Virus record (IMG/VR): IMGVR_UViG_3300027896_000028
From: a virus
Taxonomy: Duplodnaviria; Heunggongvirae; Uroviricota; Caudoviricetes
DNA length: 64,000 nucleotides
Direction: 5' to 3' (one strand)
Position 1 is the first letter of the stretch. Each line of letters begins with the position of its first letter. The notes under the pieces are model-generated. The model did not search any database. It saw nothing but the letters and a program-made list of their open reading frames with translations, and was not told where the DNA came from. This document shows, one piece after another, positions 636-40,347 of the stretch. A program made the translations under genes and the position numbers.

Positions 636-1025
636 TTATTTCTTCCAGTACTTTGCTTTTTTAGGGATGACATGACGAATACCACCGCGTGGGTCTTTTA
701 CATCTCCTCTATAGCGAGGGATGACGTGACAATGAAATTGTAGCATAGTCTGACCTGCCGCATGTCCTTCGTTAAAGCCTACATTGAATCCATCAGGACG
801 AATAGGTAAACTTACATCTAGGTCACCCATTACCCAATCAACCATCCAAATCAATTCATCACGTTCATCTTTACCTAAGAGCATAAAACACTCTACTGCA
901 CGCTTAGGAACAATTAGAGTATGACCAGGTGAAATAGGAAATCCATCTCTAAAGATCACGAGCCTATCTCCTTCAAATATGAAGTCTTTCTTTTTAATCT
1001 TACCGAATATAGGTAATGTAATCAT
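636..1025 (-). CDS. HIT-family (histidine triad) nucleotide hydrolase/transferase
   Basis: 129 aa. Motif GHTLIVPKRAV resembles the HIT core, and QFHCHVIPR is a degenerate histidine-triad motif. Confidence 0.75.
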   Translation of the reverse strand: MITLPIFGKIKKKDFIFEGDRLVIFRDGFPISPGHTLIVPKRAVECFMLLGKDERDELIWMVDWVMGDLDVSLPIRPDGFNVGFNEGHAAGQTMLQFHCHVIPRYRGDVKDPRGGIRHVIPKKAKYWKK

Positions 1026-1038
1026 AATAAATTATAAG

Positions 1039-1320
1039 TTATTTCTTGTCGTTAGTCAAGCCATATTTCTTCAATTCTTTACTGTTGAGTTGGTGCTTGA
1101 GAGTAATTTTGACAAAAGGTTCTGTACCTTTGCGCCAGCTACGACCATCAGTAGTGTATGTGTCACGAACATACCAACTACGAGAGTCGACTTCACAGGC
1201 TTCACCGAAATGTCCCACAACTACGACTGGCATATCACCTGTCGGGTCGAGCTCTTTCAGTTTAGCTATGACCTGTTTAGTGGCCATAAACTTGCTCATG
1301 GCTGTTTGTTCTTTAGACAT
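1039..1320 (-). CDS. hypothetical protein
   Basis: 93-aa ORF tightly packed between minus-strand genes. Confidence 0.45.
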   Translation of the reverse strand: MSKEQTAMSKFMATKQVIAKLKELDPTGDMPVVVVGHFGEACEVDSRSWYVRDTYTTDGRSWRKGTEPFVKITLKHQLNSKELKKYGLTNDKK

Positions 1321-1476
1321 ATCAGTAACTTACGTATCCACCATCGTAATTACATCTGCTGCAAACACCGCGAGGTGAAGGGTCTTCAGGACCACGGTCG
1401 ACAATCTCAAAGTCGTGCCCACCTTTGTGTAGGTTCTCACACAACCATTGAAACAATTTCCACTTCAATTTGCGTA

Positions 1477-1725
1477 TCATGACCTCAGATCCCTTTCATA
1501 TGAATTGTTTATCGCTTCTTCGCGCAGCCTGTCTAACTCTTCTGCATGTTGTATAGCATTTTCACGTGCTTGATGGACTGATAGCTTTAGATGTTCAATC
1601 TCCATTGCTAATCGATAGTTTTCTTCAGTTAACACATCAATCCGCTGCTCACGCTTGGTGATTTGTTTTAACATAGAATAAGTATAGACTATTCCGCTGG
1701 AACAGGCCAGAATTATTTGACGCAA
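1477..1725 (-). CDS. hypothetical coiled-coil protein
   Basis: 82-aa ORF with heptad-like charged sequence. Confidence 0.4.
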   Translation of the reverse strand: MRQIILACSSGIVYTYSMLKQITKREQRIDVLTEENYRLAMEIEHLKLSVHQARENAIQHAEELDRLREEAINNSYERDLRS

Positions 1726-2156
1726 TTAGGAAAAATCTTAGCAAGAATCCTTTGATCTGCTTTCACTCTGTGCTCATTAAGCTTTTCTTCTTTGTAATCT
1801 AACATACTCTCTATAGCTGCTCTGATACGTTTGGCATCAGCTCGCTCAAATTTGAACATATCTGTATTGGTTAACCAAGCTTCGATGGGGCACGGGTTAT
1901 CCGCTTCTATCCCATAGATCCTGTCACCATCACAAAATGTTAATCTACGTTCTACTGTCTGACTAACTTCATCCGTCCACTTATCGTGGTTCTCAGGCCG
2001 GAGATCAACCAAAATTTGATTCACAATGCATTCATAGGAAACATCTTTCGGTGGTTCAGGTACCGGTGATGCAACTGGTGCAGGTTTCTTAAACGCAGTT
2101 GCAAATACTTTGTATGTATTACGTATATTTTGGAACATAATATCATTTAGCGACAC
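1713..2156 (-). CDS. hypothetical protein
   Basis: 147-aa ORF immediately upstream of the NAMPT-family gene on the same strand. Confidence 0.5.
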   Translation of the reverse strand: MSLNDIMFQNIRNTYKVFATAFKKPAPVASPVPEPPKDVSYECIVNQILVDLRPENHDKWTDEVSQTVERRLTFCDGDRIYGIEADNPCPIEAWLTNTDMFKFERADAKRIRAAIESMLDYKEEKLNEHRVKADQRILAKIFPNCVK

Positions 2157-3759
2157 GTGCCCGAATGTCTGCGAGCGTTTCGTTGATCAACAGTTTACCA
2201 TCGAGGAACACCGACTTGAGTTCACCCTTGGCTTCCTCTTCCGGAGTAACGCGATCGGTGTAGGTATAGTGGCCATCCACCAAGTCGACACGAACCATAC
2301 CTCTGGCAGACTTCTTCATACCATCATCCGACACCGGATCTTTGTACACATCGATCGCAGTGCCATTGACAATACCGTGAGTAGCTTTAATAGCCAGACC
2401 AAACGTATCGCGCGTATTGAATTGATACGTATAGCTACCAATGCCATAGACTGCGTTGGTGGAAGCAAAGCCCTTATCCTTGAGGCGGATACTGATCTTC
2501 TCTGCACGTTCCACAGTAATCGAATCACCATAGATAGCACCGATATGCGAATCCAACATCTTATAACCCTTCGGACTAACAGTACCATCGAAGATGTCCC
2601 AAAGAGATTCAATGAGACCCTTGCGTACCACTTCCTTCTCACGAGGCGTCAGCTTCTCCATCTGAGGATGGTAACCATCAAAGCCGCAGAGACAGTCCAC
2701 CGGATCAGTCCAGAACGAGTCGGGACGGATAACCAGCTTATCCACCGGGAAGCCTCCAGTACGGGCCATGATCTCAGGTTTCAACCGCGGAAGAATCTCA
2801 GATACAACACTGAAGAGGTTATATGTATCACCGACATACGACACAACACCACTCGGAAAGCCTTCAGTGATATACCATTTGAGGAAAGCGTACTCACGGA
2901 TGAGCATCGGATTGATAACCACTGGGTCGTGATCTTCTTGACCTTGACCTTCAGGTGTGCGATCAATAAATTCCTTCATCGACTTACCAAAGTATTCATC
3001 GTTATAGATGATGTTAAAGCTGGCCACAGCATGTTCAGAAGCTGGAACGCTAGCACCAACCAGTTCCTTCTCCACATCCGCATTGTAGTAGTGTTCCAAG
3101 AACTCAATAGCCGGAATGGTATCGGTCCCAGTGAAAGACAACAAATGTCCACCACCACTCGTACAAGCCGACTCCATGCTGCTCATACCACGGAAGCTGA
3201 AGTCATGACCCTGCCATTGACAGAAGCTGGTATCACCAACTGTTTCCATAGCGTACTTGTCGAGCACAGCCCGGAAGGTCTTGGCGATGGTAGCACTAGT
3301 CATCGGCTGCCAAGTGATACAGCTCCAGATGCTCTCCAGATAGTTCACCAACCAATAAGCATGATCAACGGTGTTGGTGATAGTCGTACACGGAGTACGA
3401 ATAGACACGCTAACACCTTCAGGAAGCGATTTGATATGAAGCGGGAGATAGCCCAAGTCGTGGAGCTTCTTGATGTGATCCGTAGTCACCGCACCCTTAC
3501 CGAGCGTGGCGTTAATCATACGGAGATACTTGGCTTCCACTTCAGCCCAAGGCTTACGGAAGAAGTTCACCTCCCATTGATTCAAGAGATACTCCTTGAT
3601 GAAGTATTGCAGGCCGAAGACAACAACCGTATTCGTACCTTCGATACGGCTCTTGCGTGGAGTGAGATTGGAATATACCTTCGTGGTGCCTTTCGGGTAC
3701 ATTTTATAATGTCCCTGTTTGTAGAAATCGTTTTGAATCAGTGGTTGGATATGTTTCAT
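2143..3759 (-). CDS. nicotinamide phosphoribosyltransferase family protein (NAMPT/NadV-like; candidate Namat of an NAD+ reconstitution pathway)
   Basis: 538 aa. The N-terminus MKHIQPLIQNDFYKQGHYKMYP and the overall length are typical of the NAMPT/NadV family. The long antisense ORF 2110..3894 is rejected. Confidence 0.85.
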   Translation of the reverse strand: MKHIQPLIQNDFYKQGHYKMYPKGTTKVYSNLTPRKSRIEGTNTVVVFGLQYFIKEYLLNQWEVNFFRKPWAEVEAKYLRMINATLGKGAVTTDHIKKLHDLGYLPLHIKSLPEGVSVSIRTPCTTITNTVDHAYWLVNYLESIWSCITWQPMTSATIAKTFRAVLDKYAMETVGDTSFCQWQGHDFSFRGMSSMESACTSGGGHLLSFTGTDTIPAIEFLEHYYNADVEKELVGASVPASEHAVASFNIIYNDEYFGKSMKEFIDRTPEGQGQEDHDPVVINPMLIREYAFLKWYITEGFPSGVVSYVGDTYNLFSVVSEILPRLKPEIMARTGGFPVDKLVIRPDSFWTDPVDCLCGFDGYHPQMEKLTPREKEVVRKGLIESLWDIFDGTVSPKGYKMLDSHIGAIYGDSITVERAEKISIRLKDKGFASTNAVYGIGSYTYQFNTRDTFGLAIKATHGIVNGTAIDVYKDPVSDDGMKKSARGMVRVDLVDGHYTYTDRVTPEEEAKGELKSVFLDGKLLINETLADIRARVAK

Positions 3760-3790
3760 AGTAAAATAATAAAGGATTTGGTTGTGATAG

Positions 3791-4042
3791 TCAAGATTTA
3801 TTTGCGAATCTCTCTGACTGTTCTTTTAAGAAGGTCGAGATGGCCTGCTTCTGTGCAACAGACATTTCAGTGGCAATCATCTCATCCGATATAGCTTTCA
3901 GATACGCAGCGACATTGTTTAATCCGATGAATACAGCTTGATACCTATCTGTATCGACTTCCATAATAGCATGGGCGATATCTTCAGAGGATACGTGGAC
4001 TTCTACCTCCACGTCCACGTTTACTGTTTTTGTGATTTTCAT
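3791..4042 (-). CDS. hypothetical protein
   Basis: 83-aa ORF. Confidence 0.45.
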   Translation of the reverse strand: MKITKTVNVDVEVEVHVSSEDIAHAIMEVDTDRYQAVFIGLNNVAAYLKAISDEMIATEMSVAQKQAISTFLKEQSERFANKS

Positions 4043-4043
4043 A

Positions 4044-4253
4044 TCAGGTTTCTTTCGCTAAAATGGCATAAACAGCACCAATGCATTTTTCTTTGGCCCA
4101 GTCAACCCACACTTGTTTATCAATGCAATCACTGGCTTCGATAGCAGATTGTGTAAACCTAATAAATTCACCGCTCATGTCGCAGATAACGAAGCCTTTA
4201 TCATCGATGTATAGCATGTATCTCGTCATAACATTAGGGATTTTCTTCGACAA
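4044..4253 (-). CDS. hypothetical protein
   Basis: 69-aa ORF. Confidence 0.4.
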   Translation of the reverse strand: MSKKIPNVMTRYMLYIDDKGFVICDMSGEFIRFTQSAIEASDCIDKQVWVDWAKEKCIGAVYAILAKET

Positions 4254-4731
4254 TCTTCATATACATCGTGTTCAAATCAGAATACACACGAGCCAGTAGA
4301 GATGGGTTAACCAATTCAGTCTGGATCAATACATCGTTCTTACGCTTGTACTCTGGATGGATACAGACATAAGTCTTGCGATAGGGAGCATACTGACACT
4401 TGACAAGCTGCTTACCATATTCCAGAAGGGTAATGGGTGCCAATGTCTCAGGAGCGAAATAGAATAGAGTAATCTCCGCCAAGTCGAGATGCTTAAACTC
4501 CCAAGCAATCTGCTCGCGTTCTGCTTTAGGGTCAAGAGTGGAATAGTTATCACGGCGTGGATTAAAGATGTTAAAGTGAGGTAACAAACGATTCGCAGCA
4601 TCATCTTGCCAATTGGAGGCACCAGTAATGGAGCCAGCTAGGAAGATGGTATGCTTCAAATCGAGACCAGAGTAGTGTTCAATGCTATTAGGAGCTTCGA
4701 GATATTTCATAAGTTTAAGATATGGCATCAA
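4234..4731 (-). CDS. nucleoside 2-deoxyribosyltransferase-like protein (putative)
   Basis: 165 aa. The motif IFLAGSITGASNWQDD resembles the Rossmann-type N-deoxyribosyltransferase N-terminus. This is an inference from motif recall only. Confidence 0.4.
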   Translation of the reverse strand: MMPYLKLMKYLEAPNSIEHYSGLDLKHTIFLAGSITGASNWQDDAANRLLPHFNIFNPRRDNYSTLDPKAEREQIAWEFKHLDLAEITLFYFAPETLAPITLLEYGKQLVKCQYAPYRKTYVCIHPEYKRKNDVLIQTELVNPSLLARVYSDLNTMYMKIVEENP

Positions 4732-5206
4732 TCGTTGTTCCGAAAGTGCGTACAGCCATTAACGTTTTCCCAAGGAGATTTAATCCTTGCCAATTCTTTT
4801 CATCGAGAATAAGATCATCATCCTCTGCAAGACCTACACCCCATATCTTATCTGTAGGTGAAGCTTCTACTAAAGTCCGTGAGCCTGTAGCTTTTAATAG
4901 TTCCCACAAGCCTAGATTCTGCCGAAACTTCGCAAGCACAGCAGTATGCATGGCGCGCTCACGTAATTTTTCCCATTTAGCATTGTTAAATCCTTTAACC
5001 AGTCTGCCTAGCTTCTTAGCTTCTGCAGGATGCTTAACACTTGCAATCTGCGTCATGATATCAGCATCGTTAAAATGGTAAGCCTTCAACCACATAAAGG
5101 CGTGCTCTGAAGTATAGAATGGTATATCGTCAATGTGTAACGGCGCAGGATAGAAGTTACTCATAAACCCACCGTAGAAATAGATATGTGTGTCAGTGGT
5201 CCTCAT
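4715..5206 (-). CDS. NADAR-domain protein (YbiA-like; NAD- and ADP-ribose-associated)
   Basis: 163 aa. IYFYGGFMSNFYPAPLHIDDIPFYTSEHAFMWLKAYHF matches the conserved YbiA/NADAR signature. Confidence 0.8.
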   Translation of the reverse strand: MRTTDTHIYFYGGFMSNFYPAPLHIDDIPFYTSEHAFMWLKAYHFNDADIMTQIASVKHPAEAKKLGRLVKGFNNAKWEKLRERAMHTAVLAKFRQNLGLWELLKATGSRTLVEASPTDKIWGVGLAEDDDLILDEKNWQGLNLLGKTLMAVRTFGTTIDAIS

Positions 5207-6099
5207 AGTTTGTCAAAGAATTTGTTCACTAACCCAAGGACGTGAATATTTGGGTGTTGCGTATCTACCAAATCATGGTAGTAACTATCAGTAGTCCATA
5301 TCTGATCAATACCGTTACATAACAATTTCTCAAGTGTAGTGGTTAGATTGGTATCTCCACCGAAGACTCCATGAGTAACGTAAAGAATAACCTTACCACA
5401 GTTCTTCTTCTTCAGCTCAGCAGCGAGACCAATGAATGTACCACCCATTTCGCAGATATCATCTACAATAACAACATTCCTACCTTTGAGATCATCGCAG
5501 TAAACAGCAATCTCTTTAATCTTTCCGTTTGTTAGATCGCGAAGCTTATCGGCCCGAACGAAATTGTCATGAGCCAACCAACCAGCCACTTCGGCTGTCT
5601 TCTTATTGCTACCAGCATCCGGACTGACGAGTACACTACCCATCAGAGTAGGAATGAAATCGGTATACTTGTTGAGTACATCGAGCTGAGAGATAATCTG
5701 AACCCGATCGATAACAGCTTCGCTAACCAAGCTATGAGGGTCGACAATGGTTACCTTGTTGAAGTTCAAGCTGTTGATGTAGTTAGCGAATACCTTCAAG
5801 CTAAAGGATTCACCTCTATCACAAACCCTATCCTGCCGAGCATAAGGCAGATAAGGCATGAACAGATTGATAGGGTTCTTGTCAAAGCGTTCAAGAGCGT
5901 CCTTCAGATTAGCCAGCTTGAACAAGTCATCGCTGTTCTGAATGCGAGCAACAATCACATTAGGCTGTTCAATAGATTGGTAAGCATAGTCAGCAGCATT
6001 AAGCTTGACAGACACTTCACCAGCAGGGAAGATGAATTCCTTGAAGTAAAGAGAACTTTTAATGCCAGTTGTGAGGTTAATTTTGTGGATGTTAAACAT
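5203..6099 (-). CDS. ribose-phosphate pyrophosphokinase (PRPP synthetase)-like protein; candidate Adps of an NAD+ reconstitution pathway
   Basis: 298 aa. The PRPP-binding loop NVVIVDDICEMGGTF is diagnostic of the Prs family. The long antisense ORF 5569..6120 is rejected. Confidence 0.8.
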   Translation of the reverse strand: MFNIHKINLTTGIKSSLYFKEFIFPAGEVSVKLNAADYAYQSIEQPNVIVARIQNSDDLFKLANLKDALERFDKNPINLFMPYLPYARQDRVCDRGESFSLKVFANYINSLNFNKVTIVDPHSLVSEAVIDRVQIISQLDVLNKYTDFIPTLMGSVLVSPDAGSNKKTAEVAGWLAHDNFVRADKLRDLTNGKIKEIAVYCDDLKGRNVVIVDDICEMGGTFIGLAAELKKKNCGKVILYVTHGVFGGDTNLTTTLEKLLCNGIDQIWTTDSYYHDLVDTQHPNIHVLGLVNKFFDKL

Positions 6100-6100
6100 A

Positions 6101-6283
6101 TTATTTGGGTGCGTGTATAAAGAGATAAAGGATACCTACAAATAGGCTGACAGTCATCGCGATCTGCAAAGGACTATCAGCGTCTTTGTTGTTACGGAGA
6201 AATCCAGCAATGCTGCACAGGCCACAGATGGACCAGATGATGGTAATTAGCATCAACCAATTGTTGTGAAGTATGATGTCCAT
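6101..6283 (-). CDS. small membrane protein
   Basis: Track ORF 6101..6379 trimmed to an internal Met. Two hydrophobic helices. Confidence 0.4.
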   Translation of the reverse strand: MDIILHNNWLMLITIIWSICGLCSIAGFLRNNKDADSPLQIAMTVSLFVGILYLFIHAPK

Positions 6284-6284
6284 A

Positions 6285-6467
6285 TTATCTTCCTTTGATG
6301 AAAGCAATGAGCAAAACCACCGCAAGAGCTGCTGCTCCAATGATAAAGAGCCAGTAGAAGAATGTAGGATACGTATCAATCAGCTGCTGGAAGCAGTACT
6401 GTTGATACGACATAACAACGACGGGTTGATTGTTCATATTAGTTCTCTTGAACGACGAATGTACCAC
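6285..6467 (-). CDS. small membrane protein
   Basis: 60 aa with a hydrophobic core (FFYWLFIIGAAALAVVLLIAFI). Confidence 0.4.
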   Translation of the reverse strand: MVHSSFKRTNMNNQPVVVMSYQQYCFQQLIDTYPTFFYWLFIIGAAALAVVLLIAFIKGR

Positions 6468-6696
6468 TGATGATTACAGCCTTGTCATTGTTGTCAATGA
6501 AGAAGCAGCTTCCACCACGATCTTCCACCTTGGACTTAGCTTTCCAAGTTTGGATAGCTGTACCGTTTGCGTTGTAGAGGGTGATGGTGCGATTCAAGCC
6601 GAGCCAGTCAGACTTCTCGTGCTTGAGTGCGTTGTTAATTTTACCACAACCGGTCAGAACAACCAGGAGAGGAGCGATGATGAGTAGTTTTTTCAT
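6439..6696 (-). CDS. putative lipoprotein
   Basis: 85 aa. N-terminal signal with lipobox LVVLTGC. Confidence 0.5.
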   Translation of the reverse strand: MKKLLIIAPLLVVLTGCGKINNALKHEKSDWLGLNRTITLYNANGTAIQTWKAKSKVEDRGGSCFFIDNNDKAVIISGTFVVQEN

Positions 6697-7289
6697 TTTG
6701 TTAGTTGATAGATAGATATTCCGAACTTGGTTTTGTCAGCGAACACTTTTGTAAATTCTCCAGTCTTCTCGAAAGCTTCGAGAGCGTTAGAGACACCGCT
6801 ACAGAAAACAGAATCATGGAAAATCATGTAACCATCTTTCGCAACGAGTGATTTGTAATTCTGGATGTCTCTCTTCACACCCTCTTCAGAGTGGTCTGCA
6901 TCAATATAAACTAAGTCGAAGAGCTGGTTATGAGACAATGCCCACGCTTGAGCTTCTTTTGACTGAGAGTCACCGATGTACTCTTCCACGTTCTTACCTT
7001 TGAGGTTATCCTTCCGATAGACGTGAGCAGAGTGTTGATTGTTGTCGATGATTTTGATCGTATCAATACCGAGAAAGTCAGAGAACACTCTTGCATTTCC
7101 ACCAGCAGCAGCACCAACCTCCAAGAGGTTCTTAAAGCTTTTATTAGAAGCCATTAAGAAAGCTACCACATTAGAAATCTCATCCAGGTTCTGCTGCAGA
7201 CGAATACCACCTACAAACTTACCACCAAACATTTCCAAGTTATCAGAACCCAGATCTGCGATTTTGTCTTTAATTTCTTGAATGTCCAT
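6693..7289 (-). CDS. class I SAM-dependent methyltransferase
   Basis: 198 aa. Motif I is LEVGAAAGG, and VYIDADH is typical of O-methyltransferase-like Rossmann enzymes. Confidence 0.7.
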   Translation of the reverse strand: MDIQEIKDKIADLGSDNLEMFGGKFVGGIRLQQNLDEISNVVAFLMASNKSFKNLLEVGAAAGGNARVFSDFLGIDTIKIIDNNQHSAHVYRKDNLKGKNVEEYIGDSQSKEAQAWALSHNQLFDLVYIDADHSEEGVKRDIQNYKSLVAKDGYMIFHDSVFCSGVSNALEAFEKTGEFTKVFADKTKFGISIYQLTK

Positions 7290-7764: not shown

Positions 7765-8880
7765 TTAATGCTTAAAGCAATTGTCAATATCGATGCGAGC
7801 GAAGTTTGGAGTACCCAAACCAGTAAGACCATTGTAAAGGAACGTAACTGTCTTCCCTATCCAACCACCCACCTCAAAGAGAACCTTACGGTCCTCATAG
7901 CAACCTTTAAACGTTGCATCAAACTCTATACCCTCCCACAGCAATGTAGCTGTGACTGCAGAACCGTCCATCGTCTTGCCTTGATGGATAGCGAGGATCT
8001 TAGCTTCTGCGTCATCTTCGGGTTTAACCTTGAGTAGATCATATGAGCGACCGTGCTTGTAAGGAGCAGTGATAGACCGATACATAGCACCCTCGTACCC
8101 ATCATCTACATAGGATTGATACACTTTGTATGTCTCATCAACACTCTTCACCATCTCGTAGTCGACAACAACAATGTATTTGATATCCTGTAGAAAAGTC
8201 TTCAGAGCTTCACGACGCTGCAGGTTTCCGGTCTGCTCAGTAACGCCATTGAAACCGTAACCATCATAAACATAGAGCCGAACAAACTCTTCGCTCTCCT
8301 TTAAAACAGCTGGTGTGATCTTCTTCTCCTTCTTTTTGAGAATGCTCATCAACTTGTTGAGCTTATAACGGAACTCGTGATTGTAACCTTCACCATCAAT
8401 AACGAGATCAGGATATCTCTTAAAAAGAGGCTCCAAGGCTTTGATGATGTGTGGAATGGTAAGCCAGGTCTCACCCTTGCGAGTGAATGCACCATCCTTA
8501 GTAACAATGACACGACCACCGTTGTACTTGCGATCCAACATCGCCGGGAAAGTGATTGTATCAAGACGATCTTTGAGATGATAAGCGAGCATAGGCTCAA
8601 CGTACTGAAAGTTGTCAACATCATTGATAGAAAGGAAGTAACCAGTCTTGAGCTGTTTCTTGTATTTCGACTTGACCTCAGCTTCAGCTTGCTCTTCAGC
8701 AGTAGTAGCATTTGCCTTGCCGATGTTCTTCGGCTTAGCAATGACCCAATCTGATTCAACTAGATTAGGGCTACCCTTCACTCCAGCGACAGTACGAAAC
8801 TTATCACCATCACGCTGCTGATACCAGATGCGAATATTACCTGTTGAATCCTTACAATAGAGGGTGTCGTATGTTTTCAT
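7765..8880 (-). CDS. ATP-dependent DNA ligase (T7-like)
   Basis: 371 aa. Motif I is KYNGGR (compare T7 KYDGQR), motif IV is DGYEGAMYR and motif V is LLKVK. Confidence 0.8.
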   Translation of the reverse strand: MKTYDTLYCKDSTGNIRIWYQQRDGDKFRTVAGVKGSPNLVESDWVIAKPKNIGKANATTAEEQAEAEVKSKYKKQLKTGYFLSINDVDNFQYVEPMLAYHLKDRLDTITFPAMLDRKYNGGRVIVTKDGAFTRKGETWLTIPHIIKALEPLFKRYPDLVIDGEGYNHEFRYKLNKLMSILKKKEKKITPAVLKESEEFVRLYVYDGYGFNGVTEQTGNLQRREALKTFLQDIKYIVVVDYEMVKSVDETYKVYQSYVDDGYEGAMYRSITAPYKHGRSYDLLKVKPEDDAEAKILAIHQGKTMDGSAVTATLLWEGIEFDATFKGCYEDRKVLFEVGGWIGKTVTFLYNGLTGLGTPNFARIDIDNCFKH

Positions 8881-21909: not shown

Positions 21910-22455
21910 ATGAAAGCAATTGTAGCAATGGATTTAAACCGAACCATTGGTAATAACGGTAAACTCCCCTGGCCAAAAATTAAAGAAGATTTCGCGTTCT
22001 TCAAGAAGATGACTATAGGTGACAATCTTATCATGGGTCGCAAGACTTTTGACTCTGTAGGTGAGTTACCTGGACGCTTCACTTGGATCTTAACTAATGA
22101 TCAATCTAAGATGGCTAAGAAGTGCCTTAATATGGCTGGTGAGAGTTATGCCTACAATAATAACAGCGCTTATGTTGAGCGAGCTGATATTGATAAATTT
22201 ATAGCGACTGAAGGAAAAGATCCTCGATACACTAGCGATTTATGGGTTTGTGGTGGTGCCCAAATCTACAAAGATCTGATTCCCCTCTGCACAGATGTTT
22301 ATGTTACTCTAGTATTGAACGAATACGAAGGTGATACATTTCTACCGGAGTTTGAACATCTCTTCATTGAGCAAACTATTATTAAAGAACATAAAGACTT
22401 CTGGATCATTAGATACCACACACCTACTGCGATACCGGGAACACAATTGGTATAG
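21910..22455 (+). CDS. dihydrofolate reductase
   Basis: 181 aa. AIVAMDLNRTIGNNGKLPW and WVCGGAQIY are the DHFR signature motifs. Confidence 0.85.
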   Translation: MKAIVAMDLNRTIGNNGKLPWPKIKEDFAFFKKMTIGDNLIMGRKTFDSVGELPGRFTWILTNDQSKMAKKCLNMAGESYAYNNNSAYVERADIDKFIATEGKDPRYTSDLWVCGGAQIYKDLIPLCTDVYVTLVLNEYEGDTFLPEFEHLFIEQTIIKEHKDFWIIRYHTPTAIPGTQLV

Positions 22456-32454: not shown

Positions 32455-32781
32455 TTAATCTTCATACGACTTGGTAATGTTATAGATTGACTGATCTATT
32501 GTATAAGCACCTGTCAGAGTTACAAAATTAGTGCTTTGAAAAACCGCTTTCATACCTGCATTCTTAATTTCCTGTTTACACAATTCTTTAAAAATTTCTG
32601 CTGCGGTTATGTTATTAGGTATAGACAACAACTCTGATACTGCTTTGCTACCCTCTGGTGTTGTCATATGACTCCAAACTATCGGGGTATTTGGAACCAT
32701 AGCAATCTCTAAACAAGGATTAGGCACACTACCGGGTGTGTTCAATGTCCATTCTTCATCTGTTATTGGGTCTTCGTTCAT
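32455..32781 (-). CDS. hypothetical protein (paralog family, member 3, divergent)
   Basis: 108 aa. TDEEWTLNTPG...IFKELCKQ. Confidence 0.45.
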   Translation of the reverse strand: MNEDPITDEEWTLNTPGSVPNPCLEIAMVPNTPIVWSHMTTPEGSKAVSELLSIPNNITAAEIFKELCKQEIKNAGMKAVFQSTNFVTLTGAYTIDQSIYNITKSYED

Positions 32782-33257
32782 TCAGAGTCGATTTCATCTA
32801 ATGTGGAGTCAAAATCAACCGAGCTGTTAAGCCTCTTAATAATCTCGTCCTTGCAGCTATCTATCAAACCGACATCAGTATCAGTCTGAACTAGATGAGA
32901 TGTCAGATTAGACATATCGTTGTCATCATCCACAATTACAAAGCAAGTCACATCCGGGTTCTCGTCGAGCCAGTGTTGTATCTCACCACCTCTATCGAGG
33001 TGCGGCAGACTTGCTGTCTTACCAATGACTACACGACGAGTAGCTGGGCTGAGTTTTGAGAACAGATAATTAACTGATGCTGGGTGATGTCTCCATGTAG
33101 ATGAAAGAACGATGTCGCAGCCTGTTTCTGCAGCAATTTGATCTAACATTGCGCATTTATCTTTTTCTACCCCTACCAAACCATCAAATGATTCGGTCGT
33201 AAACCTGTTGTTGAGAACTCCATCAACGTCTAAGAAGAGTACTTTCCTTGATTGCAT
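32778..33257 (-). CDS. HAD-superfamily phosphatase
   Basis: 159 aa. Motif I is FLDVDGVLN, and the acidic motif is FVIVDDDND. Confidence 0.7.
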   Translation of the reverse strand: MQSRKVLFLDVDGVLNNRFTTESFDGLVGVEKDKCAMLDQIAAETGCDIVLSSTWRHHPASVNYLFSKLSPATRRVVIGKTASLPHLDRGGEIQHWLDENPDVTCFVIVDDDNDMSNLTSHLVQTDTDVGLIDSCKDEIIKRLNSSVDFDSTLDEIDSE

Positions 33258-34800: not shown

Positions 34801-35103
34801 TTATTTTACCTTTTCAAAAACGTGAGCTACAAATGCACCTTCCTTAAGAGTATAAGAGCCAATAAATAAGACCCCTGTGTCAGAGCAAGGTGTATCTACT
34901 CCTACTGTAATTATCTCTTTTGGTATATATGGATTGTTAATATTCTCTGCAACATACAAGTTAACTGCTGGTCTAATACCATACGCACCAGATACTGGTT
35001 TTGATTTATCAGTATGAATGCTTAAGAACATGGCTCCCTCTCTCACATGAATATTCTGTGAGTTGCTGACGCTCAGTTCTATAGCTCTAATTTGCATGCT
35101 CAT
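34801..35103 (-). CDS. hypothetical protein
   Basis: 100 aa. Confidence 0.4.
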   Translation of the reverse strand: MSMQIRAIELSVSNSQNIHVREGAMFLSIHTDKSKPVSGAYGIRPAVNLYVAENINNPYIPKEIITVGVDTPCSDTGVLFIGSYTLKEGAFVAHVFEKVK

Positions 35104-35725
35104 AATTTGTCGTGAATGTCGTTGTTTGATTTATTTCCAGACACTTATAATACACACCATCAATAGTAATTTCAAGATTTTTATGGTGGTGTCCAAAGAA
35201 AACTTGTTTCGGTTTGCGTCTCTCAATCATTCGCTGGAGAGCTAACCTAGTACGAGATTTTGCAGTAACCCACGGCCACGCACCCTGTACAATATTCTGA
35301 GGGCCATCGTGTGAAAGAAGAGTATCAGCAGAGCTGTGTTCCCATTGATTAATAGCTTCTTCGAGTTGTTGGTATGTCAACTCTTCATCATCCCACCAGT
35401 CGATACCAATTGTGCGAGAATCCTTGTCATGACTATCTGCACCAGAAACAAAGAAGAAGCCTTTATACTCACCGAAATCACCTAGACAGTTTGGAAGGGT
35501 ATGGCACTCTTTGCGATTGTCGTGATTACCTGGGAAGAACTTAAAGGTAGGTGGTAACTTCTTAAACTTGTATGTATCCGGTACACCATCAACAATAAAG
35601 CCAACACCTAAGTCTCCTATCTGGATAACCTCAGTTTTAGTAGGTACCCTCTTCTGAGCTTTTTGGTGCACCTTATGGCACCTATCTAGGTAACCATGTA
35701 CATCGCCTAAAATTGTAAATGTCAT
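35087..35725 (-). CDS. metallophosphoesterase (calcineurin-like / lambda PPase-like)
   Basis: 212 aa with GDVHG, GDLGVG and GNHDN motifs. Confidence 0.75.
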   Translation of the reverse strand: MTFTILGDVHGYLDRCHKVHQKAQKRVPTKTEVIQIGDLGVGFIVDGVPDTYKFKKLPPTFKFFPGNHDNRKECHTLPNCLGDFGEYKGFFFVSGADSHDKDSRTIGIDWWDDEELTYQQLEEAINQWEHSSADTLLSHDGPQNIVQGAWPWVTAKSRTRLALQRMIERRKPKQVFFGHHHKNLEITIDGVYYKCLEINQTTTFTTNYEHAN

Positions 35726-36205: not shown

Positions 36206-36420
36206 GCTAGTTCGTTAATAGTTGGTAAATGGTTTCCTTGGACATTACGTGTATATACAAAAGTCGACGGTACTAGGTCCCATGGATTATATCCAATATA
36301 AGCTGTATGCGAAGTTGTATCCGGTTTAGGGAATTCAATCTTCTGCGGTCCAGGTGGTTGAAACAGTGTGTTCAAACCAACTGGTCTCAGGATATTAGGG
36401 TTAATAGCTCCTACAGTCAT
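36202..36420 (-). CDS. hypothetical protein
   Basis: 72 aa. Confidence 0.35.
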   Translation of the reverse strand: MTVGAINPNILRPVGLNTLFQPPGPQKIEFPKPDTTSHTAYIGYNPWDLVPSTFVYTRNVQGNHLPTINELA

Positions 36421-36872
36421 ACAGGTAGTTTACAGATAAACAAAGTACCTTCCCACTCTTCGAAGATAACTTTGAGCATCGTTTCAATAATTCTCCAGTC
36501 TCCTCCACCGAGGCCACACCCGATAAAGTAGGGTACTGCAGCACTTCTCAAACCTACAGTTTCAAGATGACTGCGAATACCTGTCATCCCGGTAAAGAAG
36601 GCTTCATAGTCGGTATGACGTTTATCACTTCCATACCGATATTGACTGTATAGGTTATAGATGTACTTAGCATCATAAGCTTTAACACAGCTATAGTGGC
36701 CCATCTTAGCTTTGTCTCCACAAGTGGTATGATTATCTGCCTCAGCAGCTTCAGGGTACCTATCACGAATTAACCTAGCAATGCCGCCACCCATCTTCCC
36801 AAAGCAATTGCATTGGTGAATGATAGCATCACTCTCCATTTTAAAGATGTCCATTTCAACATTTGTAATCAT
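36417..36872 (-). CDS. Macro-domain protein (ADP-ribose binding/processing)
   Basis: 151 aa. IIHQCNCFGKMGGGIARLI matches the macro-domain core (NAAN...GGGV). Confidence 0.7.
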   Translation of the reverse strand: MITNVEMDIFKMESDAIIHQCNCFGKMGGGIARLIRDRYPEAAEADNHTTCGDKAKMGHYSCVKAYDAKYIYNLYSQYRYGSDKRHTDYEAFFTGMTGIRSHLETVGLRSAAVPYFIGCGLGGGDWRIIETMLKVIFEEWEGTLFICKLPV

Positions 36873-39537: not shown

Positions 39538-40347
39538 TCAGTAACCAAAAGCATTAAAAAACCAGGTGTGGTCGTTACGAATCATGTTGGCCAAGTCTTT
39601 GCCTAAAACATCATTATAATCAGGTTTAACGGCTTTAAGCGAAGTTGCTACCTGATGATTACCATACACGCCAAAATGCGAGTCGTCTTCAAACACTTCT
39701 TTCTTCAGATTATTGAAGTCATGAGTGAATGGATCTATGCCAATATATTCGTACACCTTATTCATTGTCTCTTGCGGTGCCATGCAAAGATCCTCGTATC
39801 GGACGAATAGAATCTTCTTATCTATACCACGTTGAAATGAATCGGCTGTACGTAATAACGCTAATCCGATAGGTTGAGTATTCAACCAATGCTGAATGCG
39901 CTGGCCTGTAGTCATGTTAGTTAGATTAACTGGATTATCTGTACCAACAGGCAAATGACGAGTCTTGCGGTAAACCTTTTCCATACTAGCAATAGAAGCT
40001 CTCAAATCTCTAACCATACAGATCATCTTCGGGTTAGGATTCCATTGGTCTACCCATTCATAGTAATGAGACCAACCTCTATTCTTATCGCATACAATTG
40101 GACGATTAGTAATAGGCGCGTAATAGGAATCTGCCATTCCTTTGCACATGTTGATGAAACCTTTTAACATCAACTCGGGATCTTGAGATTTGACTTCAGG
40201 AAGATTGTAGTTGCCACGAGCCGCAAATTGATATTCAAGCAATGGTGAGGTGGCGCTACCGTAGATATTAGGATTCTGGTGCAGAATGACTTGAAGTAGT
40301 TCGGAGCCACTACGGGGCATCGATGTATTAAAAATCAGCTTTTCCAT
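39538..40347 (-). CDS. sulfotransferase-family protein
   Basis: 269 aa. The 5'-PSB-like loop SMPRSGSELL and the 3'-PB-like RDLRASIAS are arranged as in PAPS-dependent sulfotransferases. Confidence 0.6.
   Translation of the reverse strand: MEKLIFNTSMPRSGSELLQVILHQNPNIYGSATSPLLEYQFAARGNYNLPEVKSQDPELMLKGFINMCKGMADSYYAPITNRPIVCDKNRGWSHYYEWVDQWNPNPKMICMVRDLRASIASMEKVYRKTRHLPVGTDNPVNLTNMTTGQRIQHWLNTQPIGLALLRTADSFQRGIDKKILFVRYEDLCMAPQETMNKVYEYIGIDPFTHDFNNLKKEVFEDDSHFGVYGNHQVATSLKAVKPDYNDVLGKDLANMIRNDHTWFFNAFGY

Follow-up and report, generated by a model that had tools for sequence, protein, structure and literature searches.

What kind of NAD+ metabolism does a phage conduct when it places a Prs-like gene (phosphoribosyl pyrophosphate, PRPP, synthetase family) and a NAMPT-like gene close together on one strand, with no nicotinamide mononucleotide (NMN) adenylyltransferase (NMNAT) in evidence? 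The question is raised by positions 636-6099 of a 64,000-nucleotide stretch of IMG/VR virus record IMGVR_UViG_3300027896_000028 (the whole of this stretch is referred to below as the window). One answer is conventional nicotinamide salvage, comparable with the phage pathway NARP2: a true Prs and a NadV would make NMN, and an NMNAT would be contributed by the phage from outside the window or by the host as NadD or NadR. The other answer is the phage pathway NARP1, executed by Adps and Namat, and this is the answer for which evidence is presented here. Judged by its sequence, the block at 1713-6099 (minus strand) probably represents an extended NARP1 operon for NAD+ reconstitution, carried by an uncultivated large phage. 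NARP1 is present in ~4% of phages and defeats Thoeris I, DSR1/2, SIR2-HerA, SEFIR and similar NAD+-depleting defences. The core pair, already known as NARP1, is on sequence criteria one more, fairly divergent, ordinary member of that system and of modest value alone; what is new in the locus is the operon layout, in which genes for a NADAR-domain protein and a nucleoside deoxyribosyltransferase-like (NDT-like) protein are embedded.

The five open reading frames (ORFs) singled out in the initial annotation of 636-6099 are all present, all on the minus strand, and Pfam, NCBIfam and PHROGs concur on their family assignments. Four of them lie in a block of seven genes:

5203..6099, minus strand: adps candidate (Prs-like ADP-ribose pyrophosphokinase), first gene of the block; 298 aa; PF13793, PF00156, PF14572, PHROG_619
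4715..5206, minus strand: NADAR-domain protein; 163 aa; PF08719, E 2.2e-44, 152 bits
4234..4731, minus strand: NDT-like protein (uncharacterised PF15891 subfamily of the NDT/DNPH1 superfamily); 164-165 aa, ATG at 4728; PF15891, E 2.9e-18
4044..4229, minus strand: orf61, small ORF; gene call on both source contigs; no Pfam match
3791..4042, minus strand: orf83, small ORF; gene call on both source contigs; sub-threshold Pfam match only
2143..3759, minus strand: namat candidate (NAMPT-like nicotinamide ADP-ribose transferase); 538 aa; PF04095, E 2e-28; PF18127, E 2.8e-10
1713..2138, minus strand: orf141, last gene of the tight block; gene call on both source contigs; no Pfam match

In the scheme proposed for these genes, a host defence NADase of Sir2, TIR or SEFIR type would split NAD+ into ADP-ribose (ADPR) and nicotinamide. 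Adps would convert ADPR and ATP to ADPR pyrophosphate (ADPR-PP) and AMP, and Namat would join ADPR-PP with nicotinamide, yielding NAD+ and pyrophosphate; both activities are assigned on family membership and diagnostic residues. An adenine-binding clamp in Namat would select ADPR-PP over PRPP. Since Namat would generate NAD+ directly, an NMNAT would not be needed.

The NAMPT-like protein

The best PDB matches of the NAMPT-like protein are 9W5X and 9W5W, at 478 bits; human NAMPT scores 178 bits. Both are structures of the Namat from phage SPbetaL1 with nicotinamide and NAD+ as ligands (PMC12774641). The hallmark of Namat is an adenine "selectivity clamp" composed of a helix motif (SCH) and the beta1-beta2 loop (SCL). 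The SCH consensus is GS-X-phi1-X-phi2-X-phi3-TRD, in which the third and seventh positions are aromatic and stack on adenine; the SCL contributes a stacking Arg, Lys or Tyr (R40 in SPbetaL1; PMC12774641).

Both elements are found in the window protein (MAFFT alignment). Its SCH reads G441-S-Y443-T-Y-Q-F447-N-T-R-D, with Y443 and F447 at the stacking positions, next to GSFTYQYNTRD in SPbetaL1 and GSYTYQYVTRD in ICP1, both validated Namats. Its SCL segment, TPRKSR38IEG, aligns with TPRTSR40VED of SPbetaL1. The catalytic core is likewise retained: R345 aligns with SPbetaL1 R306 in the sequence VIRPDS, and the SEH motif with the catalytic His is kept. The clamp pattern is common to SPbetaL1, FADO, ICP1 and seven metagenomic relatives. 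The NadV of Vibrio phage KVP40, taken as the negative control, reads GGGLLQQLDRD at the SCH position and has a shorter, unrelated loop in place of the SCL, so that the clamp motif and the SCL Arg, present in the window protein, argue against conventional salvage.

Overall similarity divides along the same line. The window protein is 49-51% identical to validated Namats and 29.5% identical to KVP40 NadV. In tblastn searches of phage records, ICP1 scores 363-373 bits, Bacillus phage Thrax3 455 and KVP40 NadV 150, and the scores as a whole are bimodal (Namat-type at least 281 bits, NadV-type at most 201 bits), the window protein falling on the Namat side. A score of 150 bits against KVP40 NadV, compared with 363-478 bits against Namats, is also difficult to reconcile with a NadV. 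The 2143-3759 protein displays every sequence property of Namat that was looked for, and its identification as a Namat, which would prefer ADPR-PP over PRPP, is supported.

The window Namat has additions of its own: an insertion of ~40 residues (250-288; window 2896-3012) after the catalytic-His segment, and smaller ones, GFPVD and FW, close to R345. Only the two nearest metagenomic relatives (loci L008 and L010) have them as well; SPbetaL1, FADO and ICP1 do not.

A 495-aa protein deposited as "nicotinamide phosphoribosyltransferase" (PDB 9KE8/9KEO) scores 387 bits to the window Namat, well above human NAMPT. It is without the Namat clamp (GAQTYQRNTRD at SCH, no SCL Arg) and less than 60% identical to any phage record.

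The Prs-like protein

Pairwise identity alone is not decisive for Adps or Prs: the Prs-like protein is 34%, 32% and 28% identical to the Adps proteins of ICP1, SPbetaL1 and FADO, respectively, and 26% identical to E. coli Prs. More specific to the Adps family are two signatures: the alpha11-alpha12 module at the C-terminus of PRPS is lost, and the PP loop is remodelled (PMC13586617). Alignment of 13 Adps-clade sequences with five true Prs (E. coli, Pseudomonas, Neisseria, Legionella and a phage-encoded Prs from locus L107) yields four traits that sort all of them by group, with no exception; for each trait, the window protein is in the Adps state. (i) It has no Prs N-terminal beta1-alpha1 element (..FxGxxxxxLAxxIA..). 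(ii) Its catalytic hairpin, K185-L-R187-D-L-T-N-G, conforms to the pattern common to Adps, K-x-R-[DN]-x-x-[TN]-G (KIRDVKTG in ICP1, KQRNFHTG in SPbetaL1); Prs has K-[RK]-R without the [DN]...G tail (KRRPRANV in E. coli). (iii) Its PP loop, D213-D214-I-C-E-M-G-G-T-F222, ends in Phe, and Prs loops end in ..TL. The position in question, 221 of ICP1, is Phe in 13 of 13 Adps-clade sequences and Leu in all five true Prs; elsewhere the loop varies within Adps (DDICEMGGTF in the window, DDICDGAASF in ICP1, DDLSSFGGTF in SPbetaL1), the counterpart of ICP1 D216 being Glu in the window protein and Ser in SPbetaL1. (iv) The AEAIRRIxxEESVSxLF tail is absent and, with it, alpha11-alpha12: 37 residues follow the reference column, compared with 26-39 in validated Adps and 51-63, including the motif, in true Prs.

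The catalytic and acceptor residues K185, R88, H122, D161, D213 and D214 are all present. (Their counterparts are the catalytic hairpin Lys, K185 in ICP1 and K162 in SPbetaL1, and the ICP1 acceptor residues R87, H121, D161, D212 and D213; PMC13586617.) Because Prs has the same residues, what they indicate is competence rather than specificity.

Placement of the Prs-like protein by hidden Markov models (HMMs) and phylogeny, a check recommended in the initial annotation for both core proteins, comes out on the side of Adps. A neighbor-joining tree separates 13 proteobacterial Prs from the Adps of ICP1, SPbetaL1 and FADO together with the window clade at 91% bootstrap support. HMM scores (cut-offs: PRK01259, 297 bits; PRK00934, 296 bits; TIGR01251, 113 bits) are as follows:

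Validated Adps: TIGR01251, 96-106 bits; PRK01259, 64-80 bits
Window Prs-like protein: TIGR01251, 130 bits; PRK01259, 98.6 bits; PRK00934, 115.6 bits
E. coli Prs: TIGR01251, 423 bits; PRK01259, 533 bits
Phage-encoded true Prs (L107): TIGR01251, 340 bits; PRK01259, 354 bits

The window protein is thus far below the PRK01259 and PRK00934 cut-offs and, with the N-terminal motif also absent, does not have the properties of a bona fide Prs. Its identification as an Adps candidate, which would make ADPR-PP, is supported. The caution given at the outset, that Adps and Prs, or Namat and NAMPT, are indistinguishable by sequence alone, is outdated: the signatures published in 2026 (PMC12774641, PMC13586617) make the distinction and are found here.

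Choice between the two pathways

The absence of a visible NMNAT from the window, remarked on in the initial annotation, holds up. Pfam search of the 42 other ORFs of at least 140 aa in the 64-kb window finds no PF01467, Nudix, NadR or PnuC match, and tblastn of phage NMNAT, NatV-like and MutT proteins against the window and ~4.8 kb of additional contig (L006) yields only chance-level matches, with E of at least 0.99. (The contig measures at least 75.9 kb, of which the window covers 64 kb, and genomes of relatives are 150-230 kb; this is not a whole-genome absence.) The window accordingly contains no pairing of an NMN adenylyltransferase with a clamp-less NadV that would mark NARP2.

The neighbourhood is that of Adps, with Namat 1.4 kb downstream on the same strand. 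A Namat-type gene lies within 6 kb in 76 of 80 broadly sampled IMG/VR loci of the Adps family, matching the published association (a Namat homolog in the immediate vicinity for 97% of the Adps clade; Osterman et al.), and an NMNAT, Nudix or HIT match is found in none of the 80.

Several observations weigh against the NARP1 reading of the core pair. The window protein passes the broad TIGR01251 model (130 bits, cut-off 113), and validated Adps score just below it. The ICP1 adenine contacts F92 and F223 are not kept (nor are they in SPbetaL1 or FADO). The window clade branches beside the validated Adps, as their sister group, and not within them, a split with only 55% support, and the Prs in that tree are exclusively beta- and gamma-proteobacterial, with no Gram-positive, archaeal or class II Prs. 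Apart from these observations, the window protein differs from the Adps of ICP1 and SPbetaL1 in keeping a PNIHVLGL strand, which resembles the C-terminus of Prs.

Conventional salvage takes further encouragement from the retention of PRPP-dependent NMN synthesis by Namat enzymes in vitro (PMC12774641), from the coverage of only 64 kb of a larger genome, and from the existence of phage clusters that do pair NadV with a true Prs (L107, below). Against it, in addition to the clamp, stand the missing N- and C-terminal Prs modules together with the Adps hairpin and GGTF loop, the PRK01259 score (99 bits compared with 354 for a phage-encoded true Prs), and the absence of NMNAT and Nudix from the window and the 80 related loci. 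Conventional salvage is, on balance, very improbable; clamp, Adps traits, tree, HMM behaviour, neighbourhood and lack of NMNAT all bear out the earlier suggestion that NARP1 fits better than NARP2.

Operon organization and source phage

The order of the block is adps-NADAR-NDT-like-orf61-orf83-namat-orf141, with successive gaps of -4, -17, +4, +1, +31 and +4 nt; the NADAR start overlaps the adps stop by 4 nt, and 1,443 nt and four genes separate adps from namat. The only sizeable gap lies upstream of adps:

6100..6438, minus strand: non-coding gap of 339 nt; probable promoter region

The tight spacing, the upstream gap and the absence of any terminator-like site from the scanned minus strand of the block fit a single transcription unit for all seven genes. 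A promoter-like site directly upstream of namat (3794-3766) leaves room for a second transcription start. Promoter matches in the 339-nt gap do not exceed the shuffled expectation, so no specific site is claimed there. At the distal end, orf141 is not recurrent among related loci (11 related neighbourhoods clustered), which makes its membership in the system doubtful; in the same clustering, orf61 is conserved only in the closest relatives.

The source phage has no close sequenced relative among isolates. Megablast of a 5.6-kb region against 50,697 phage records finds no match, and a single-protein search of IMG/VR with the Prs-like protein finds nothing. An identical Prs-like protein is on a metagenomic contig of 75.9 kb. 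The homologs examined for context, of 54-69% identity, are on contigs of 81-211 kb, and others are listed on contigs of up to 232 kb; the large size of these contigs identifies the source as an uncultivated large phage.

The embedded NADAR and NDT-like genes

The best PDB matches of the NADAR protein are the NADAR 8BAU (E 4e-18) and YbiA (2B3W). Aligned with 8BAU, it has Glu34 and Lys41 at the positions of the Glu and Lys there, spaced by 7 residues like the catalytic E36 and K43 of T4 AdfN. Fold and catalytic Glu/Lys are those of an ADP-ribosylglycohydrolase. Phage NADARs (AdfN) are proven anti-DarT1 factors that strip ADP-ribose from DNA (PMC11825919). The window protein resembles AdfN/DarG1-type NADARs (PMC11825919, PMC11543638) in fold, in the spacing of Glu and Lys, and in being phage-encoded and stand-alone; it differs in lacking a DarT context and in the translational coupling of its gene to adps, within an operon for NAD+ rebuilding. 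The presence of NADAR next to phage NadV/NadM was noted earlier by Iyer, Burroughs and Aravind (2022), who predicted action on soluble ADP-ribose derivatives.

The NDT-like protein belongs to a small family of ~306 homologs in 5.8 billion proteins, all PF15891 and none named. Only distant relatives (at most 43% identity) are found in cultured phages, mostly jumbo phages. Thirty members share the motifs FLAGSITGAxDWQ, FNPRR, EREQITWE, ETLAPITLxEYG and YKRKNDVxIQT, with E95, E104, R60, R130 and K131 invariant. A Rossmannoid fold, with strand 4 followed by a Glu nucleophile and strand 1 by a nucleotide-binding loop, places the family in the NDT/DNPH1 superfamily, with DNPH1, MilB and LOG/PpnN as the closest characterised folds. 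Against PDB sequences the family profile matches only 4MCJ, and hhalign with rat DNPH1 (an approximate sequence) is weak (E = 0.012), placing TIF30LAGSITG over SVY13FCGSIRG; residue-level mechanism is kept tentative for these reasons.

In NDT/DNPH1, a Tyr at the position equivalent to Phe30 enforces 2'-deoxy specificity, and the ribo-specific MilB has Phe. The invariant Phe30 hints at a ribonucleotide as the substrate of the NDT-like enzyme. The distance from DNPH1/Rcl, MilB/BlsM and the nucleoside 2-deoxyribosyltransferases is considerable: the window protein is at most 14% identical to any characterised member, has Phe for the deoxy-enforcing Tyr, and occurs in the context of NAD+ rebuilding rather than nucleoside salvage or antibiotic synthesis. 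Previously described viral members of this superfamily (DrHyd, NDT-type) are only ADP-ribosyl-cyclase-like (Iyer, Burroughs and Aravind, 2022), and a literature search found no paper pairing NARP1 with a deoxyribosyltransferase-like protein, PF15891, DNPH1 or a nucleosidase. As far as can be checked, association of the NDT-like family with NAD+ rebuilding has not been described before.

Recurrence of the accessory genes

Seven lineages were examined through homologs of Adps:

Source phage (window): adps-NADAR-NDT-61-83-namat
L007-9: NADAR 3 kb upstream; adps-141aa-NDT-55-66-namat
L010: NADAR upstream; no NDT-like gene
L011: adps-216-148-NADAR-(reverse gene)-namat
L012: adps-211-NADAR-...-NDT-namat
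L013: adps-224-NADAR-56-NDT-namat
L014: neither NADAR nor NDT-like gene

All-against-all clustering of 11 neighbourhoods yields as recurrent families Adps (11), NDT-like (8), Namat (8, and one more cut at a locus end) and NADAR (7, each within 4 kb of adps); other clusters in more than three loci are antisense shadow ORFs only. The ~211-224-aa proteins that follow adps in L011-L013 were considered as a further recurrent family and did not cluster.

Further loci were reached through the NDT-like protein itself, four of them through distant members:

L015: NADAR-adps-radical SAM-NDT-(LAGLIDADG)-namat
L016: adps-...-NDT
L017, L018: compact adps-NDT-namat operons

Thirteen additional NDT-seeded IMG/VR loci comprise six with the order adps-NDT-namat, four with the order NAMPT-family, Prs-family, NDT-like, two cut at a contig edge and one without any NAD-related gene. 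L104-L106 are compact (L104 being the same contig as L018), and in L103 the NDT-like gene abuts namat, ~860 nt from adps. Distinct informative NDT loci number 14; a Prs-family gene is present in 13 of these and a NAMPT-family gene as well, within ~3 kb, in 12. Besides the source phage, the loci with the NDT-like gene between adps and namat are L007-9, L012, L013, L015, L017, L018, L102, L103, L105, L106, L111, L115 and L119. One of these (L115:6001-9235; IMG/VR 3300045919_000631), the best match in the 80-locus IMG/VR sample, is a compact adps-NDT-NADAR-namat operon with the middle two genes swapped relative to the window. Since it holds the same four families in another order, it argues that selection acts on the four-gene set and not on its order.

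The NDT-like family is found in both kinds of phage NAD+ rebuilding module and is therefore not specific to NARP1. Locus L107:2116-6519 (IMG/VR 3300032213_002087) has genes for a 319-aa protein, a canonical NadV (549 bits on PRK09198), a true Prs (354 bits on PRK01259) and a 153-aa ORF, followed by the NDT-like gene. The 319-aa protein can be thought of as NatV-like on the basis of its C-terminal Nudix domain and an N-terminus that weakly resembles NMNAT (E = 5e-5). L107, and also L110, L112 and L113, represent a NARP2-type module with its own PRPP synthetase and the NDT-like family. In the cultured Sinorhizobium jumbo phage Phosso (L100:244-5411; PV764938.1), an NDT-like gene whose product is 43% identical to the window protein ends a one-strand cluster of a nicotinate/nicotinamide phosphoribosyltransferase, four small ORFs, a MutT-like Nudix protein, an NMNAT, a hydrolase and a hypothetical protein; there is no Prs-family gene within 5 kb of it.

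Mobile selfish elements lie in or beside the adps-namat interval of several relatives: a GIY-YIG/NUMOD3 homing endonuclease (L012:5026-5820), a LAGLIDADG endonuclease (L015:5470-6252) and an IS605 OrfB/TnpB gene with a resolvase (L014:4303-5893). The interval looks like an insertion hotspot.

Possible roles of the accessory enzymes

NADAR and the NDT-like protein would both be cleavers of N-glycosidic bonds, and by analogy with the accessory enzymes Adpp and RyDEP, together with context and fold, may widen the input of the pathway. For NADAR, the proposed contribution is release of ADPR from N-linked adducts (DarT1-modified DNA, for example), and for the NDT-like enzyme it is hydrolysis of the N-glycosidic bond of a phosphorylated ribonucleotide. 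The NDT-like protein has features consistent with the latter: a conserved Glu104 in a nucleophile motif, Arg and Lys of phosphate-binding type and Phe at the 2'-deoxy selectivity position. The favoured reading of its function, tentatively held, is that it frees linear ADPR from an N-linked derivative: cyclic ADPR (cADPR), N7-cADPR, His-ADPR or another defence product. Precedents for this guess are hydrolysis of cADPR by CD38-type members of the superfamily and the presence of RyDEP at the equivalent place in its operon.

ADPR would be the entry metabolite shared by the three contexts in which the family is found (NARP1; NadV, Prs and NatV-like; NadV, Nudix and NMNAT), entering either through Adps or by way of Nudix, ribose-5-phosphate and Prs. 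A bolder and more doubtful proposal is that PF15891-type NDT-like proteins constitute an accessory class that would turn N-linked products of TIR and Sir2 enzymes, unusable by Adps, into ADPR, at once quenching a signal and feeding NARP1. If so, the NDT-like protein would be the N-glycosidic counterpart of RyDEP and Adpp, and with NADAR and a Macro-domain protein encoded in trans (considered below) the phage would carry a multi-input NARP1.

An alternative, fairly unlikely, is that NADAR and the NDT-like protein are independent passengers in a variable anti-defence and auxiliary-metabolism hotspot and do not feed an otherwise real NARP1, NADAR being only an orphan DarG1-like antitoxin (AdfN) that acts on phage DNA and the NDT-like enzyme serving the nucleotide pool or DNA modification. 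Proof of anti-DarT1 function exists for phage NADARs (PMC11825919). The adps-namat gap is a site of variable cargo (homing endonucleases, a radical SAM gene, UPF0114 and many small ORFs); in L007 and L010, NADAR lies outside it, 3-4 kb upstream of adps; and PTPS/QueD, DHFR and glycosyltransferase genes of the window suggest nucleotide or DNA modification. Frequencies point the same way: in the 80 broadly sampled NARP1 loci an NDT-like gene is found in only three, which makes it a minority accessory, and NADAR in only five. Other findings that sit uneasily with a dedicated NARP1 function are the L107 group and Phosso, some distant NDT-like members (X1, L114) that are unlinked to NAD genes, and the Phe30/Tyr13 register with DNPH1, which depends on the weak hhalign match to an approximate sequence. 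On the other hand, the linkage of NDT-like with Prs- and NAMPT-family genes in 12 of the 14 informative loci persists at Adps identities down to ~30-40%, and there is no space for unrelated cargo in the compact operons of three genes (L017, L018, L105, L106) or four (L115). With only ~306 members in the family, a general role in the nucleotide pool is unlikely, and Phe at the deoxy-enforcing position disfavours action on deoxynucleoside monophosphates (dNMPs; weak evidence).

The next guess at the activity of the NDT-like enzyme, itself quite unlikely, is that of a ribonucleoside-5'-monophosphate nucleosidase converting AMP or another nucleoside monophosphate (NMP) to base and ribose-5-phosphate. 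Such an enzyme would clear AMP generated by Adps, Prs or Nudix and, in NadV and Prs clusters, supply ribose-5-phosphate for PRPP. AMP does inhibit Adps (~35% residual activity at 500 uM; PMC13586617), the NDT-like gene nearly always follows a Prs-family gene (Adps or true Prs), the closest characterised folds are all NMP or dNMP N-glycosidases, and the GSIxG loop and invariant Arg and Lys suit binding of a 5'-phosphate. Yet ribose-5-phosphate is no substrate of characterised Adps, so that the product would be useless to NARP1; destruction of adenylate is costly during infection; and the Phosso cluster, with its Nudix and NMNAT, has an NDT-like gene and no nearby Prs.

Roles other than these share the remaining probability. 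Two further activities were considered. Release of nicotinamide from NMN or nicotinamide riboside is unlikely, as the family sits in NadV/NMNAT clusters that have NMN as an intermediate, and a NADase, which would work against an operon that rebuilds NAD+, was rejected.

The HIT gene, a distal Macro ORF and other genes

The initial annotation had included the neighbours of the core pair in a candidate island. NADAR and the NDT-like gene do recur with the system, and are its more interesting part; the HIT gene is not conserved with it.

636..1025, minus strand: HIT hydrolase; PF01230, E 1.7e-17

This gene lies 700 nt beyond the block, behind four small ORFs, and has an 11/12 sigma-70-like match, TTGACT-17-TATAAT, directly upstream (1031-1059). 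It is absent near NARP1 in all examined relatives and in the 80 IMG/VR loci, and its product is a generic HINT/Ap4A-phosphorylase-like protein. Own promoter-like site, generic type and absence in relatives all speak for leaving it out, and the HIT hydrolase is probably not part of the NARP1 system. Its motif reads QFHCHVIPR; Fhit-type HIT proteins read HVHVHVLPR, and the first His would then be Gln in the window protein.

A Macro-domain ORF lies far from the block:

36417..36872, minus strand: Macro-domain ORF; 151 aa; PF01661, E 1.9e-6; tentatively, a possible Adpp-like ADPR-1''-phosphate (ADPR-1''-P) phosphatase

Its PDB matches include the Poa1p ADPR-1''-P phosphatase, YmdB and TARG1, and it is 38-42% identical to phage macro proteins named "Poa1p-like phosphatase", one of which is encoded in Vibrio phage VF16 with the Prs-like gene on one side and the NAMPT-like gene on the other (the NARP1-AP layout). 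Macro homologs are found within 6 kb of adps in 16 of the 80 IMG/VR loci, mostly adjoining the Namat gene. No Macro gene lies in or adjoining the window block, the Macro ORF being 30 kb away, so that the layout is not that of NARP1-AP. The protein may be an Adpp-like ADPR-1''-P phosphatase acting in trans; alternatively, it belongs with nearby RNA-repair-like genes (HAD_SAK_2, Metallophos).

These RNA-repair-like genes (32778-33257, 35087-35725 and one ORF in 39.5-63.5 kb) specify a "Swiss Army Knife" HAD protein, a calcineurin-like phosphoesterase and an RNA ligase with a PHA02142 OB fold; L017 also has an RNA ligase adjoining namat. The set suggests that the phage also counters tRNA- or RNA-cleaving defences. 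Auxiliary genes (6693-7289, 7765-8880, 21910-22455, 39538-40347 and others) specify a class I methyltransferase, an ATP-dependent DNA ligase, DHFR, PTPS/QueD, a sulfotransferase, several glycosyltransferases and a MoxR/VWA pair, and hint at nucleotide or DNA modification and surface-glycan functions.

Relation to known systems

The locus has in common with NARP1 (Osterman et al. 2024; Bas63, SPbetaL1, FADO; NrsAB of ICP1) a phage-encoded same-strand pair of Prs-like and NAMPT-like genes, with clamp, SCL Arg, catalytic Arg and Adps traits present and NMNAT absent. It differs in that the core genes are not adjacent, four genes (1.4 kb) coming between them. With NARP2 (NadV and NatV; Vibrio phage KVP40) it shares rebuilding of NAD+ from nicotinamide by a NAMPT-family enzyme; NARP2, however, requires PRPP and an NMNAT-Nudix enzyme, and no NMNAT or Nudix is found in the window.

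Some NARP1 operons hold a third enzyme, Adpp or RyDEP, between adps and namat. Adpp is a Macro phosphatase that turns ADPR-1''-P, the product of aRES, into ADPR (bioRxiv 10.64898/2026.01.28.702374). Like this adps-Adpp-namat operon (NARP1-AP; Vibrio phage Gary), the window embeds an enzyme for an ADPR derivative, and its phage also encodes a Poa1p-like Macro protein; here, however, the embedded enzymes are NADAR and NDT-like, and the Macro gene is ~30 kb off, maybe in an RNA-repair module. RyDEP is a glycosidase that turns 2'/3'cADPR into ADPR (Mycobacterium phage DyoEdafos gp78; bioRxiv 10.64898/2026.05.28.727677). A glycosidase within a NARP1 operon is a feature common to both loci, and RyDEP can serve as a working model for the NDT-like enzyme. 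The two are nevertheless different proteins: RyDEP has the RyR R12 fold and cuts O-glycosidic ribose-ribose bonds, and the window protein, known from sequence alone, has the NDT/DNPH1 Rossmannoid fold, whose known members cut N-glycosidic bonds.

Implications

A practical outcome is a set of reusable rules for annotating phage Prs/NadV pairs: for Adps, the GGTF PP loop, the K-x-R-[DN]..G hairpin and the lack of the terminal modules; for Namat, the GS-aromatic clamp. As a lead, it is the third gene that is useful, and the compact three-gene operons L017 and L018 offer it in clonable form. Earlier accessory enzymes exposed moves by which hosts went beyond plain NARP1: Adpp led to the ADPR-1''-P of aRES, and RyDEP to the cADPR isomers of Thoeris. 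The NDT-like family occupies the same slot in many uncultivated large phages, and occurs with NadV and Prs clusters as well. By analogy, this points to a further NAD-derived metabolite in the arms race between phages and bacteria.

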